In this document: piece by piece, positions 25 to 62,105 of the stretch
How the letters are laid out: every line of letters begins with the position of its first letter
How positions within the stretch are numbered: position 1 is the first letter of the stretch
Source: Methanothermococcus sp. Ax23
GTDB lineage: Archaea > AGJL01 > Methanococci > Methanococcales > Methanococcaceae
Length of the DNA: 64,000 nucleotides
Direction: 5' to 3'
NCBI RefSeq assembly: GCF_049075655.1
Contig: NZ_CP157522.1
Coordinates: forward strand, 928,001-992,000
The notes under the pieces: generated by a model
What the model was told of the DNA's origin: nothing
The model's database searches: none
Seen by the model: only the letters and a program-made list of their open reading frames with translations
Position numbers and translations under genes: made by a program

Positions 25-438
25 ATGGTTGTTATAGATGCAGAAAATGCAGTTGTTGGAAGATTGGCATCTTATGCGGCAAAGCTCGCGTTATCAGGGG
101 AAGAAGTTGTTATCGTAAATGCTGAAAAGGCAATAATGACAGGAAACAAAGAATATATATTTGAGAAATACACTCAAAAAAGAAATAGAAAAAGTATTAC
201 AAATCCTAGAAGAATGGGTCCAAAATATCCAAGAAGACCTGATGACATCGTAAGAAGAATTATAAGGGGAATGGTTCCATACAAAAAGCCAAAAGGAAGA
301 GATGCTTTTAAAAGAATTAAGGTTATGGTAGGAGCTCCGGAAGATGTAAATGTTGATGTAGTATTAAATGAAATGCCAAATACAAATAAATATGTAACAA
401 TTGGAGAACTTAGTAAATACTTGGGAGCTAAATTCTAA
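25..438 (+). CDS. rpl13: 50S ribosomal protein L13 (uL13)
   Basis: IDAENAVVGRLAS and P..PDDIVRRIIRGM motifs; followed by S9. Confidence 0.97.
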   Translation: MVVIDAENAVVGRLASYAAKLALSGEEVVIVNAEKAIMTGNKEYIFEKYTQKRNRKSITNPRRMGPKYPRRPDDIVRRIIRGMVPYKKPKGRDAFKRIKVMVGAPEDVNVDVVLNEMPNTNKYVTIGELSKYLGAKF

Positions 439-451
439 TTGAGGTGATTAG

Positions 452-856
452 GTGAAAGTAATTCATACAGTAGGTAAGAGAAAAACCGCTATTGCAAGAG
501 CCACTGCAAAGGAAGGTAAAGGCAGAATCAGAATAAACAAAAAACCAATAGAAATAATTGAACCAAAATACATTAATGCAAAATTGATGGAGCCTGTAAT
601 ATTAGCGGGAGATGCTATTAATGGTATAGACATTGATATTACAGTTAAAGGTGGAGGTATTGCTGGTCAAATGGATGCAGCAAGAACTGCCTTAGGTAAA
701 GCAATTGTGGAATATACTGGAAGCATGGAGATAAAAGAGAGATATTTAGAATATGACAGAACCATTCTTGTTAGCGATGCAAGAAGAACAGAGCCACACA
801 AACCAAGTAAATCCACAAAAGGTCCAAGAGCTAAGAGACAGAAATCATACAGATAA
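452..856 (+). CDS. rps9: 30S ribosomal protein S9 (uS9)
   Basis: [10 protein letters not shown] and C-terminal [12 protein letters not shown] start after GAGGTGA RBS. Confidence 0.97.
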
Positions 857-958
857 ATTTATAATTTTTTTATTATTATCTATTTTGAGTATCGCATTAA
901 ATAGAAAAATGAGAGATTTTGAGAGTATTGTTATTTCATACCCATTTGGTGATATATT

Positions 959-1168
959 ATGGTAATGTTTCCAATTAGATGTTTTTCATGTGGTAATGTA
1001 ATATCAGAAGTATATGATGAGTATATTTCACGATTAAAAGATGGGGAAAAACCTGACGAAATATTGGATGATTTGGGAATTAAAAAATACTGTTGTAGAA
1101 GGATGTTTATATCCCACAGGGTAGATAAAGACGGCAGGGAATTGTTCGATGATATTATGGAATATTAA
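959..1168 (+). CDS. rpoN: DNA-directed RNA polymerase subunit N (Rpo10)
   Basis: PIRCFSCG...YCCRRM zinc motif; conserved position after rps9. Confidence 0.96.
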   Translation: MVMFPIRCFSCGNVISEVYDEYISRLKDGEKPDEILDDLGIKKYCCRRMFISHRVDKDGRELFDDIMEY

Positions 1169-1193
1169 TTTAAATATATCATATTTACTTATT

Positions 1194-1271
1194 GGGACTG
1201 TGGGGTAGCCTGGTCCATCCTGTGCGTCTGGGGGGCGTGCAACCCGAGTTCAAATCTCGGCAGTCCCACCA
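1194..1271 (+). tRNA. tRNA-Pro (GGG), CCA encoded
   Basis: Acceptor stem GGGACTG/CAGTCCC, anticodon loop CT-GGG-GG, TTCAAAT T-loop, ends ACCA. Confidence 0.93.
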
Positions 1272-1312
1272 TTTATTTCTAATTATTTATTATATTTCAA
1301 AATACATAGGTT

Positions 1313-1399
1313 CCAAGTTCCACGAAGTGGGACTTGGACTTTGGGTAGCATCCTTTTTTAAAGGATGCGTTTGAATCTAAGCAGTCCCACCATTTATTT
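1313..1399 (+). repeat. Degenerate tRNA-Pro-like duplicate with two hairpins
   Basis: GCAGTCCCACCATTTATTT at 1381-1399 is identical to 1260-1278; hairpins at 1313-1337 and 1348-1368. Confidence 0.6.
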
Positions 1400-59879: not shown

Positions 59880-59986
59880 AATTTCACCAAATTTAATACA
59901 TTATATTTTTTATAAATTTTAAATTATATTATATTTTAAATTTCATTATGATTCATATTTGAAAATATAAAAAATCTATGATACTA

Positions 59987-60012
59987 AATACCCTCGCTTT
60001 GCTCAGGATATT
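59987..60012 (+). repeat. Isolated hairpin with CGCT(T)TGCTC loop
   Basis: AATACCCT-CGCTTTGCTC-AGGATATT; same loop motif as the inserts at 19055 and 58471. Confidence 0.45.
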
Positions 60013-60067
60013 GTAAAACATGTTTAAATTTAAATAAAAAAATATTAAAAAAAGAAATAAAGTGATA

Positions 60068-60358
60068 TTATTCATTAATCATCTCATCCATTGTAGATAT
60101 TATGTCTTTAACTTTTGGATTTACTATATAATAGTGATTCCATGTTCCTTCTTTTCTAGCTTTTATTATGCCAGATTTTTTTAATATATTTAAATGATGG
60201 GATATGGTTGGTTGAGGCTTTTTTAATTCATCTATTATATTACACACACACATGCTATCATTTTCACTTAATAATCTCAATATCATTAATCTTGTTGGGT
60301 CAGCAAATGCTTTGAAAATTTCTGCCATGTTTTCATATTTGCTTTCATCTACAACCAT
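60068..60358 (-). CDS. ArsR/SmtB family transcriptional regulator
   Basis: FKAFADPTRL, MCVC, QPTISHHL, RKEG. Confidence 0.92.
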   Translation of the reverse strand: MVVDESKYENMAEIFKAFADPTRLMILRLLSENDSMCVCNIIDELKKPQPTISHHLNILKKSGIIKARKEGTWNHYYIVNPKVKDIISTMDEMINE

Positions 60359-60609
60359 TTTATCACCAAAAAAGCCATTTATAATTTTATTTTGTAAAAT
60401 ATATAAAATATATTATTGTTGCCATGTTAATACAATGCTAAAATTAAAAGATTATTGTAATAATATGTTTCATAATATTTATATATTTTTCAATATTTAT
60501 ATTTAATTACGTTAGTGATTACATATTATAATTGTTTGTATATAATATTTATGAATGATGATTTTTGATAACGATTTTTATGTGTGGGCAATATAAAATA
60601 AGGTGATAA

Positions 60610-61302
60610 TTAAAACTCTTTAATTTTTATAGATATATTTTTTGGGTCATCTACGCCTTTTAACGAGCTTATTATACCTTTTAACGTGTTTTTAATTATG
60701 ATTGAAACAAATGGATTCATAGGAATGGTTTTTCCATTAACTACCATTTCCACTCCTTTTGATATCACACACTGGTCCCATTTTAGTTCTCCACTAATGA
60801 CTTTTTCTACAAACGTTTTACAGTTATGTCCACAATGACCGCAATTTAGGTTGTATGTTGGAACTATACTTTTTTCAAGCACTTTTTCTATAACTTCGTC
60901 AATATCATATTCATAGTCTTTAACTACCATAATAGTTTGAGAATCTCGGAGCTCCGACCCTTCATCTCCTTTAACCATAAGTATCTTTGGAATATTTAAT
61001 TCTTTTAACTGCTCTTTAAATCCTTCCACTATAACAATCTCATTATCTAATTTGGAAAGTATCTCATATAAGCTCATTTTATTGTAAAAAAATGTAGTTT
61101 TATTACTATCTGATAGAACAGATATATCTGAATAATGTTTGAACTTGTAGGAATCTGTTCCTTCTTTATCAACTTCAACATCATGAAAACTATGTTTTAT
61201 GGATGCAACACTAATGTTCATCTCTTTTAATTTCTTTAAAATATCGCATATAAGCGTAGTTTTCCCGGATTTTTTTGGACCGATTACTCCAATAACTCTC
61301 AT
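60610..61302 (-). CDS. mobB: Molybdopterin-guanine dinucleotide biosynthesis protein B with Fe-S domain
   Basis: GPKKSGKTT, IKH, DKEGTDS, VEGFK, NCGHCGHNC. Confidence 0.92.
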   Translation of the reverse strand: MRVIGVIGPKKSGKTTLICDILKKLKEMNISVASIKHSFHDVEVDKEGTDSYKFKHYSDISVLSDSNKTTFFYNKMSLYEILSKLDNEIVIVEGFKEQLKELNIPKILMVKGDEGSELRDSQTIMVVKDYEYDIDEVIEKVLEKSIVPTYNLNCGHCGHNCKTFVEKVISGELKWDQCVISKGVEMVVNGKTIPMNPFVSIIIKNTLKGIISSLKGVDDPKNISIKIKEF

Positions 61303-61487
61303 AATATCACATCATAGTATTAGCAATATTCATTTAACAATATTAATATATAAAGTTTTTTAATATAAATTATTGATACATAATCATAAAATAAAAATAA
61401 ATGACATAAAAAACATAAATAAAAGAAATAAAAAAATAATCAAAAGATAAAATAGAAAAATTAAAAATAATATGTTTGGGTTAAAGT

Positions 61488-62105
61488 ATGATATATATTG
61501 TAGGAATAGGTCCGGGGGATAAAAAATATTTAACATTAAATGCAATCGAAACTGTGGAGAGCTCAGATATTGTAGCAGGTAGTGGCAGAGCATTGGAGTT
61601 ATTTAACATCGAAGAACATAAAAAATATATATTAACAAAAAATTTGATTGAGGAGTTAAAAAACTTAGTCATGAATAATAAAGATAAAAACATTGCAATA
61701 TTGTCCACAGGAGACCCGTGTTTTAGTGGATTGTTGAAAACAGTTTTAAAATATAATATTGCAAAAAGGGATGATATTCAGGTAGTTTCAGGCATATCCT
61801 CTATTCAGGTTGTAGCATCCAAGCTTAAAATCTCATGGGAAGATTACCATATATTGACGCTTCATGGAAAGGAGGAAAATAGAAAAATCCTTCTGGATTT
61901 AATAAAAAATAACGAAAAAGTAATATTTCTGCCAAGTAACCTAAAAGAAGATGTAAAATATTTAATAGACAATGGTATAAGCCCCAATAAAAAAATAATA
62001 GTTTGTGAAAACCTCACATACAAAAACGAAAGAATAATAAATGATGAATTAAAGAATATAATAAGTATGGATTTTTCATACCTGTGTGTTTGTGTTATGG
62101 AATAG
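61488..62105 (+). CDS. cbiE: Cobalt-precorrin-7 C5-methyltransferase
   Basis: VGIGPG, STGDPCFSG, GISSIQ, LHG, ENLTY..ER. Confidence 0.93.
   Translation: MIYIVGIGPGDKKYLTLNAIETVESSDIVAGSGRALELFNIEEHKKYILTKNLIEELKNLVMNNKDKNIAILSTGDPCFSGLLKTVLKYNIAKRDDIQVVSGISSIQVVASKLKISWEDYHILTLHGKEENRKILLDLIKNNEKVIFLPSNLKEDVKYLIDNGISPNKKIIVCENLTYKNERIINDELKNIISMDFSYLCVCVME

Follow-up and report, generated by a model that had tools for sequence, protein, structure and literature searches.

The genome of the archaeon Methanothermococcus sp. Ax23 (G000) contains a hyper-abundant short palindrome, GAGCTC. The word was analysed in a 64,000 nucleotide stretch of the chromosome (G000:C1:928001-992000, hereafter the window), in the whole genome, which comprises C1 (1,662,948 bases) and the plasmid C2 (7,732 bases) at 31.9% GC, and in 40 relatives, all of one order. 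A total of 2089 GAGCTC was found in the 1.67 Mb of G000 (2085 on C1 and 4 on C2), which corresponds to 1254 per Mb or approximately one per 0.8 kb, and the word is a real hyper-abundant palindrome of chromosome and plasmid here and of the genomes of four relatives. The DNA word itself is subject to a directional force: loss of intact sites was slower than that of comparable codon pairs, further sites appeared at other positions, and the force was strong enough to raise the frequencies of the encoded dipeptides. GAGCTC is the equivalent, in an archaeon, of HIP1, the highly iterated palindrome (HIP) of cyanobacteria, as had been proposed from the window alone (the original prediction), and the counts, codon shuffles, intergenic DNA and Markov ranks all bore out a genome-wide, hyper-abundant palindrome of this type.

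Abundance of GAGCTC and its independence from coding

Under Markov models of orders 0-4 the observed/expected ratios (O/E) of GAGCTC in G000 were 16.8, 19.7, 13.1, 4.9 and 1.6, and the word ranked first among 3596 hexamers at orders 0-3. The order-4 ratio was only 1.6 because the word itself makes up most GAGCT pentamers (2085 of 2578). All 18 one-mismatch words were present at 0.04-1.2 times the level expected from composition, and the GAGCTC peak is therefore sharp. Both the density and the excess lie in the range by which highly iterated palindromes are recognised (hundreds to thousands per Mb, at least 15-fold). Flanking preferences were weak, with a G at position −1 in 37% and a C at position +1 in 39% of the sites, at most 0.22 bit per position in the flank logo and about 0 beyond ±3. 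The octamer GGAGCTCC showed no excess beyond that of the hexamer (order-5 and order-6 O/E 1.1), and the core unit in G000 is the hexamer GAGCTC. Of the motif originally described, the hexamer was accordingly upheld and the octamer was not, as it does not form a separate unit in G000. Enrichment restricted to the window, an outcome that the original prediction had set against itself, is excluded by the genome-wide count.

The distribution over coding frames was obtained with a long-ORF (open reading frame) gene model of 1572 genes covering 84% of C1, which contains some errors, such as the assignment of a site in the signal recognition particle (SRP) RNA to an ORF. On C1, 1073 sites were read as GAG-CTC (Glu-Leu), 613 as xGA-GCT-Cxx and 222 as xxG-AGC-TCx, and 177 were non-coding. 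The 1909 GAGCTC observed in coding DNA compare with a mean of 187 (never more than 215 over 100 permutations) when synonymous codons were permuted within each gene, keeping proteins and per-gene codon usage, a 10.4-fold excess over a null that is conservative because codon usage is already inflated by the word. By frame the expectations were 80.8, 83.0 and 23.3, giving excesses of 13-, 7.4- and 9.5-fold. Among the 3864 Glu-Leu pairs of G000, GAG-CTC accounted for 1073, GAA-CTC for 55 and GAG-CTT for 54, and 39% of all CTC codons followed GAG. Arithmetic on these counts gave GAG:GAA odds 65-fold higher before CTC than elsewhere and CTC:CTT odds 83-fold higher after GAG, which at equilibrium corresponds to a scaled advantage of approximately 4. 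Outside genes, strict intergenic DNA from which tRNAs and GC-rich RNA segments had been removed contained 176 GAGCTC against 10.3 expected (17-fold), and the 7.7-kb plasmid 4 against 0.31 (13-fold). The fold enrichment was equal in intergenic DNA of 26% GC and in coding DNA of 33% GC. No site was found in tRNA genes of G000 and 0-1 in the GC-rich RNA segments.

That the excess is a by-product of coding or composition, through amino acids, codons, codon pairs or lower-order words, is thereby hardly credible. Such an explanation could draw on the order-4 ratio, on the codon pair GAG-CTC accounting for 51% of the C1 sites and on the slight rise of site density with GC at third codon positions (Spearman rho 0.21). 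The first of these reflects a null absorbed by the word itself, however, and the excess of ten-fold over a shuffle that preserves proteins and codon usage holds in every frame, extends equally to intergenic and plasmid DNA and goes with the first rank among hexamers. In addition, relatives with approximately 71-75% identical proteins range from 14 to 1645 sites. A codon or dicodon artefact was rejected on the combined evidence of the codon shuffle, the Glu-Leu codon-pair counts, the intergenic and plasmid excess and the Markov ranks, in line with the earlier view that codon usage would not suffice.

Two further origins were considered and rejected. A dispersed repeat element of the repetitive extragenic palindrome or miniature inverted-repeat transposable element type is at odds with flanks carrying at most 0.22 bit and with sites that lie in frame within conserved proteins. 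An origin in clustered regularly interspaced short palindromic repeats (CRISPR) was dismissed as the CRISPR repeats lack GAGCTC and the densest spot of the genome (C1:124946-125843) is not a CRISPR array.

Several other palindromes of G000 were avoided. Their order-4 O/E were 0.05 for CTGCAG and GTGCAC, 0.07 for GTTAAC, 0.10 for GTATAC, GTCGAC and CTTAAG, 0.14 for CTATAG and 0.16 for CTCGAG, which suggests pressure against GTNNAC and CTNNAG. Words containing GATC or CTAG were likewise scarce.

Occurrence, conservation and turnover among relatives

The GAGCTC counts of the 41 genomes were bimodal. Five genomes held 1321-2089 copies (G000, n = 2089; G012, n = 2070; G010, n = 1645; G013, n = 1515; G003, n = 1321) and the others at most 490. 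Strong depletion was seen in G007 (n = 4), G008 (n = 9), G005 (n = 14) and G002 (n = 16), and the remaining genomes had 26-229 copies, apart from the distant G040 with 490, where a control word occurred 340 times. In 400-kb samples, the word reached 22.6 times its compositional expectation in G012, the richest, and 10.1 times in G013; the sample of G005 contained 0.02 GAGCTC per kb and just 175 AGCT. In G010, 1259 of the 1645 sites extended to GGAGCTCC, with a G at −1 in 86% and a C at +1 in 83%, and its coding DNA held 977 octamers against 64.5 in the codon shuffle. We infer that the word read is 6 bp wide in G000, G012 and G013 and 8 bp wide in G010. In all 17 genomes of a sister family, f2 (G023-G039), 16-35 copies of GGAGCTCC were observed against 0-4 of the reversed control word, a mild octamer enrichment without hexamer excess.

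The AGCT core was nearly absent from the approximately 4.9-kb FttA loci of four close relatives, with 0 observed against 11.7 expected in G008, 1 against 13.2 in G002, 3 against 16.3 in G005 and 0 against 13.9 in G015, an avoidance that probably reflects AluI-type restriction. In an FttA tree of 30 rows, the motif-rich G000, G003, G012 and G010 branched without resolution at the root of genus g1; G002, G008, G005, G004, G009, G011 and G006, which are poor in the word or avoid it, formed a nested clade (support 99/98), and the motif-rich G013 fell outside the genus. The trait may be old, with loss or reversal, or may have had several origins, a choice that this one protein tree cannot decide.

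Codon alignments of reciprocal best hits to G000 comprised 337 gene pairs for G012, 270 for G010, 291 for G013 and 256 for G005, with identities at four-fold sites of 0.67, 0.50, 0.49 and 0.40, respectively. Aligned G000 sites were retained at 333 of 442 positions in G012, 94 of 397 in G010, 106 of 408 in G013 and 3 of 339 in G005. At positions encoding Glu-Leu in both G000 and G012, GAGCTC was kept in 83%, GAATTA in 58% and the other codon pairs in 10-56%. The individual codons were better conserved inside the word than outside it (GAG 0.77 vs 0.41, CTC 0.77 vs 0.24, GCT 0.84 vs 0.56 and AGC 0.74 vs 0.38). Co-occurrence with G000 at the same Glu-Leu position exceeded the product of the marginals 1.6- to 1.9-fold in the distant genomes (55 vs 35.0 in G013 and 40 vs 21.3 in G010). 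From the retention between close genomes together with the 24-26% sharing between distant motif-rich ones it follows that abundance is maintained while positions turn over, and the comparison of orthologous positions suggested in the original prediction thus showed both retention and turnover. With G010 as the outgroup, 303 genes yielded 82 gain-like events in G000 and 86 in G012, and 20 G000 sites and 18 G012 sites had been lost on the respective other branch, with the word present in the outgroup.

The proteins were affected as well. In the samples of motif-rich genomes, Glu-Leu occurred at 1.21-1.27, Ser-Ser at 1.21-1.29 and Gly-Ala at 1.18-1.43 times expectation, compared to 0.87, 0.96 and 1.11 in G005, which is an imperfect baseline since it avoids AGCT. 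An amino-acid difference coincided with 140 of the 230 discordant G000/G012 sites, and 72% of the Glu-Leu pairs of G000 were still open to a silent gain of GAGCTC.

A templated writing of the word was considered. Discordant windows differed by a single base in 23%, against 62.5% in controls, and all 12 polarised gains had taken two to four changes; four of these lay in heavily diverged or replaced segments and three were synonymous with doubtful polarity. Stepwise mutation with relaxation is sufficient, because the synonymous subset of discordant windows followed the same pattern as other rare codon pairs and the polarised gains were partly doubtful, and templated writing was rejected. In one gene, C1:1370601-1372878, G000 was near-identical to the distant G010 over two stretches (1 and 4 differences per 48 flanking bases) and differed from the closer G012 at 25 and 22 of 48 bases in the same stretches, suggesting replacement or transfer in one lineage.

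Distribution along the chromosome and candidate reading proteins

The spacing of GAGCTC in G000 was near exponential (coefficient of variation 1.09), a period of 3 was the only one in the spacing analysis, and the dispersion index of 1.0-1.2 at 1-50 kb was almost that of a Poisson process. For 40 control hexamers of similar count the 20-kb dispersion averaged 2.42 (range 1.17-5.09). A periodogram with 500 randomisations, simpler than the method of Xu et al. 2018, revealed no period of 5-200 kb in G000 (P = 0.21-0.26) or in G010 (P at least 0.76), so that the spacing periodicity raised in the original prediction did not materialise, and a deficit of long gaps was not seen in G000. The first tenth of each gene was poor in sites (130 vs approximately 195 per decile), and 592 genes lacked the word, against a Poisson expectation of 570.

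Just two stretches were significantly poor in GAGCTC, C1:113848-124946 (approximately 11 kb) and C1:1342927-1355393 (approximately 12.5 kb, one site). Both have 26-27% GC and contain 7 of the 10 GT1 glycosyltransferase matches of G000, and they are probably imported surface-glycan clusters and candidate recent imports. GAGCTC could serve as a marker of the residence time of DNA. Adjoining the largest site-free island, C1:124946-125843 holds ten GAGCTC in 0.9 kb of non-coding DNA, in local repeats in which GGAGCTCC abuts a TATA-like sequence (e.g. ...GGAGCTCCCATATTTATATGG...); these are possibly a set of promoter or operator elements.

The window contained 72 GAGCTC between positions 332 and 61564, or 1.1 per kb, compared to a mean of 4.87 in dinucleotide shuffles (sd 2.41, maximum 13; none of 100 shuffles reached 72). 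The octamer GGAGCTCC occurred 13 times (shuffle mean 0.24, maximum 2), at 331-338, 4705-4712, 7539-7546, 10350-10357, 14791-14798, 24163-24170, 26716-26723, 31236-31243, 36990-36997, 45012-45019, 53436-53443, 54471-54478 and 60948-60955. The original prediction had estimated by eye about 70 hexamers where roughly 4 would be expected and about a dozen octamers where fewer than 1 would; both estimates proved accurate, all 12 example coordinates matched the counted site list, and its GC content of about 30% was somewhat below the 32.6% measured. Its description of sites in every frame, within genes of either strand, also agreed with the long-ORF model, in which frames 0, 1 and 2 contained 43, 19 and 6 sites and the other 4 were scored non-coding, genes of the minus strand carrying 40 sites and those of the plus strand 28. 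Sites 1899 and 43973, scored non-coding, fall in ORFs with GTG or TTG starts and are probably coding. The two sites said to be intergenic do lie between ORFs: the octamer at 7539-7546 is flanked by ORFs 6588-7523 (+) and 7700-9322 (−), and the hexamer at 41656-41661 by ORFs 40572-41531 (+) and 41698-42225 (−). The site at 49786-49791 is, as claimed, within the archaeal SRP RNA gene (49761-50076, −). The tightest pair, with starts 8 bases apart (11521-11534), is in the FttA gene (10882-12789, −), and the largest site-free gap measured 4.8 kb (45019-49785), which is not significant as about five gaps of this length are expected genome-wide from the mean spacing. McrA, SepRS and FttA were among the genes of the window, consistent with a methanogenic archaeon. 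A tRNA match at 28892-29009 (+), 118 bases long against a 71-position model, probably bears an intron, and a second tRNA is located at 28680-28764 (−).

No C5 methyltransferase was found in G000. Its candidate DNA methyltransferases were the beta-class M1 (C1:1437541-1438443, 300 aa, SPPY), the type III-like M2, inside a GAGCTC-free stretch, the HsdM M4 and the gamma-class M5, M6 and M10. Orthologs of M1 were present in G003 and several f2 genomes and not found in G010, G012 or G013. M6 occurred among the relatives in G003 only, M5 was partial in G013 and present in G019, and M10 was found in G013 and, as an N-terminal half, on a plasmid of G012. M1 is 74-77% identical to the f2 copies, went undetected in the majority of the genomes of its genus and is a patchy, probably mobile, restriction-modification gene. 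A comparison of methyltransferase families covered G003, G008, G010, G012 and G013. A true C5 enzyme was seen in G013 only; true beta-class enzymes numbered 4 in G003 and 1 each in G010 (SPPY), G013 and G008, with none in G012; HsdM-like proteins were found in G012 (2), G003, G013 and G008 (2), with none in G010; and D12-class enzymes in G012 (1) and G003 (2). Some DNA methyltransferase was present in all five motif-rich genomes, and no ortholog or family was common to them among M1, M5, M6 and M10 and the C5, beta, gamma and D12 classes, M2 and M4 not being followed across relatives. Vsr was detected in 0 of 41 genomes, NucS in none of the motif-rich ones and RE_SacI in 0 of 41, by a search without a positive control. 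The cognate methyltransferase and Vsr correlates that the original prediction had suggested seeking were not recovered among the orthologs and families followed.

A synteny screen against the 400-kb sample of G005 gave 34 candidates, of which one block was examined, an island with a UvrD/Rep helicase, a RecB/AddB-type PDDEXK_1 nuclease and a DpdA (G000 C1:1537787-1542521; G010 L134:7383-13964). The DpdA scored 420 bits with the NCBIfam model (cut-off 200) and 402 bits with that of PADLOC. The nuclease and DpdA were present in G000, G010, G013 and G032 and not found in G012 or G003, DpdA even with the family model, so that 3 of the 5 motif-rich and 1 of the 36 other genomes carried the island. 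It is associated with the trait, and as a required cause of the word it was rejected, since it was not found in G012 or G003 and G012 had as many gain-like events as G000. The island would constitute a Dpd-like system for the modification or defence of DNA in an archaeon. In G010 it also carries a GmrSD/DUF262 gene, and the 1537-1543 kb stretch of G000 has 20 GAGCTC in 6 kb.

A CRISPR array of G010 gave no match in phage records, and 3 of its 13 unique spacers gave none in viral contigs. The 80 unique spacers of G000 contained 1 GAGCTC, compared to 0.19 expected by composition and 3.2 at host density. Within the G010 array (L058:2131-2714) a 292-base segment comprising four repeat-spacer units is exactly duplicated in tandem, and another two adjacent spacers are identical to each other.

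Explanations for the word and comparison with known systems

We regard GAGCTC as a HIP-like word kept by a per-site directional force, with biased repair or gene conversion as the likeliest source, and give this reading a probability of approximately 40%. The equal enrichment in coding, intergenic and plasmid DNA, the uniform spread, the absence from islands and the variable width argue for a sequence-reading protein and a force exerted site by site. Drive is favoured over a function of each site because there was no spacing constraint and no long-term conservation of positions, and because the proteins are distorted despite unused silent options. A symmetric, probably dimeric, protein would recognise the half-site (G)GAG and, during repair of mismatches or heteroduplexes or during gene conversion between the numerous copies of the genome, would favour the strand with the intact word. 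The word would then spread as a molecular drive in which single sites need no function of their own, and the width recognised may have evolved from 6 bp (G000, G012, G013) to 8 bp (G010). Among the proteins followed, no shared orphan methyltransferase qualifies as the reader, and neither Vsr, NucS nor DpdA does. A more novel version, in which GAGCTC/GGAGCTCC is a methylation-independent selfish word driven by a symmetric reader in repair or gene conversion among chromosome copies, invades every resident replicon, bends the proteome, widens from 6 to 8 bp and disappears or turns into an avoided word once the reader is gone or AGCT restriction arrives, seems somewhat unlikely.

Several observations weigh against a repair or conversion bias. 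No candidate for the reading protein turned up, and neither of the mismatch-repair nucleases searched for (Vsr, NucS) tracks the trait. The virus comparisons, which might have revealed such a force on whatever DNA resides in the cell, gave no match for G010 and, for G000, a spacer count between the expectations from composition and from host density. Polyploidy and gene conversion, known from other Methanococcales, are only assumed here. Weak additive selection at each site would yield the same equilibrium, conservation and proteome distortion. The octamer of G010 was slightly under-dispersed relative to Poisson at 1-5 kb (0.80-0.90), an evenness that could reflect selection for coverage, although saturation of the available positions would give the same. 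Similar conservation of HIP1 was taken by Xu et al. 2018, in the accessible part of that paper, as selection and not biased repair (PMC5861425).

Selection of this type would make GAGCTC a dispersed, weakly beneficial binding site for an abundant chromosome-level protein, acting in nucleoid organisation, Chi-like recombination and repair or self-recognition like that of an uptake signal, with its density held by selection. It takes in the chromatin-protein and the uptake or recombination options of the original prediction, which sequence data alone do not set apart from a repair drive. The conservation above matched controls between close genomes, from which Xu et al. argued, a density of about one per kb resembling that of uptake sequences, imported islands without the word, the evenness in G010 and the RecB/AddB-type nuclease and UvrD-type helicase of three motif-rich genomes fit such a role. 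We nevertheless consider it rather unlikely: G000 and G010 have no periodicity, G000 has no long-gap deficit, positions are not conserved among distant motif-rich genomes, and a need for density alone would not demand distorted proteins with most silent options unused. A palindrome is also unable to supply the polarity that defines Chi, and the helicase-nuclease island was not found in G012 or G003. An origin linked to modification, in which non-orthologous methyltransferases or a DpdA-type 7-deazaguanine insertion target GAGCTC and a modification-dependent repair bias creates the word, appears improbable. Every motif-rich genome does have some DNA methyltransferase, G010 has a single beta-class enzyme with SPPY, a bona fide DpdA adjoins the helicase and nuclease in G000, G010 and G013, and the AGCT avoidance in close relatives implies that enzymes reading this core circulate in the group. 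The short target motifs of phage DpdA include GA according to the text available (PMC10484667, PMC7544227), and HIP1-rich strains without a recognisable cognate enzyme are mentioned in the accessible part of Elhai's study (PMC4390886). On the other hand, the five genomes have no methyltransferase ortholog or family in common among those followed, and DpdA is missing from the family-model results for G003 and for G012, which is the richest genome and gained as many sites as G000. G032 carries the DpdA island with only 130 GAGCTC. In the available part of the report on the single-molecule real-time (SMRT) methylome of Methanococcus aeolicus, N4-methylcytosine is listed at CTAG, N6-methyladenine at GTNAC, GCACY and CGAG and an inferred 5-methylcytosine (m5C) at ACGT, with nothing at GAGCTC or AGCT, for a strain that may or may not be rich in the word and by a method blind to m5C (PMC10113651). 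A bolder variant of the selfish-word reading, in which the DpdA system of three of the five motif-rich genomes acts on the guanine of GA within GAGCTC, is very improbable.

HIP1 (GCGATCGC) and the alternate HIPs of cyanobacteria are likewise short GC-rich palindromes, and in the accessible parts of their descriptions they occur at approximately 500-2500 per Mb, a range that includes the density of GAGCTC, with 15- to 300-fold over-representation in both cases (PMC4390886, PMC5861425). Both types of word occupy intergenic DNA as well as every coding frame, are better conserved than codon controls in close genomes, have a patchy distribution over relatives, some lineages carrying variants, and, as far as those sources go, have no known function. 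Unlike HIP1, GAGCTC does not show the 10-90 kb periodicity that was the criterion of Xu et al. 2018, in the part of that paper available (PMC5861425), and sister lineages avoid its core. It also differs in its domain of life, in being a different and shorter word (6 bp, and 8 bp in one genome) and in having no shared cognate orphan methyltransferase, with no C5 enzyme in G000.

The uptake sequences of Neisseriaceae (DNA uptake sequence, DUS) and Pasteurellaceae (uptake signal sequence, USS) are non-palindromic words of 9-12 bases for which molecular drive is the accepted explanation. GAGCTC resembles them in its density of about one per kb, occurrence in all coding frames, effects on peptide content, turnover at kept abundance, absence from imported islands and the existence of dialects between related species; unlike them, its core is a 6-bp palindrome and not an asymmetric 9-12-mer. 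Chi sequences, read by the helicase-nucleases RecBCD and AddAB, are asymmetric, oriented with replication and few-fold enriched. GAGCTC shares with Chi the character of a short, species-specific, over-represented word, and three of the five motif-rich genomes encode a UvrD-type helicase and a RecB/AddB-type nuclease; in contrast to Chi it is a palindrome without orientation, and searches of G012 and G003 did not recover this island. Very-short-patch repair in E. coli raises CCWGG, a methyltransferase target word, through repair bias by less than approximately 2-fold and needs Dcm and Vsr. Here, no C5 enzyme was found in G000 and no Vsr in the 41 genomes, and the deamination products GAGTTC and GAACTC were not depleted (0.88-fold). 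As in restriction-site avoidance, a strong lineage-specific pressure acts on one family of words, since G002, G005, G008 and G015 avoid AGCT, but the sign is reversed in G000, with its 17-fold excess.

No description of a GAGCTC word in Methanococcales came up in searches of full-text articles, where matches were primers and cloning sites; this agrees with the original prediction, which knew of none. The accessible text of Elhai 2015 is restricted to cyanobacteria and lacks the term archaea (PMC4390886).

Cyanobacterial HIP1 has been known for decades, with no consensus on what it does or how it arose, and the same kind of signal is found here, independently, in Archaea. A cognate orphan methyltransferase, the favoured correlate of HIP1, is not necessary for such words. 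One genus offers sharp contrasts between hexamer-type, octamer-type (one genome), baseline and core-avoiding genomes, and this natural series should help to separate drive from selection. A force that shifts dipeptides matters for models of codon usage, for the detection of horizontal transfer and for cloning in these methanogens. If the selfish-word reading is true, GAGCTC would exemplify a type of molecular drive, acting genome-wide in Archaea, that is new, and the HIP1 problem would gain an independent model that may prove tractable.

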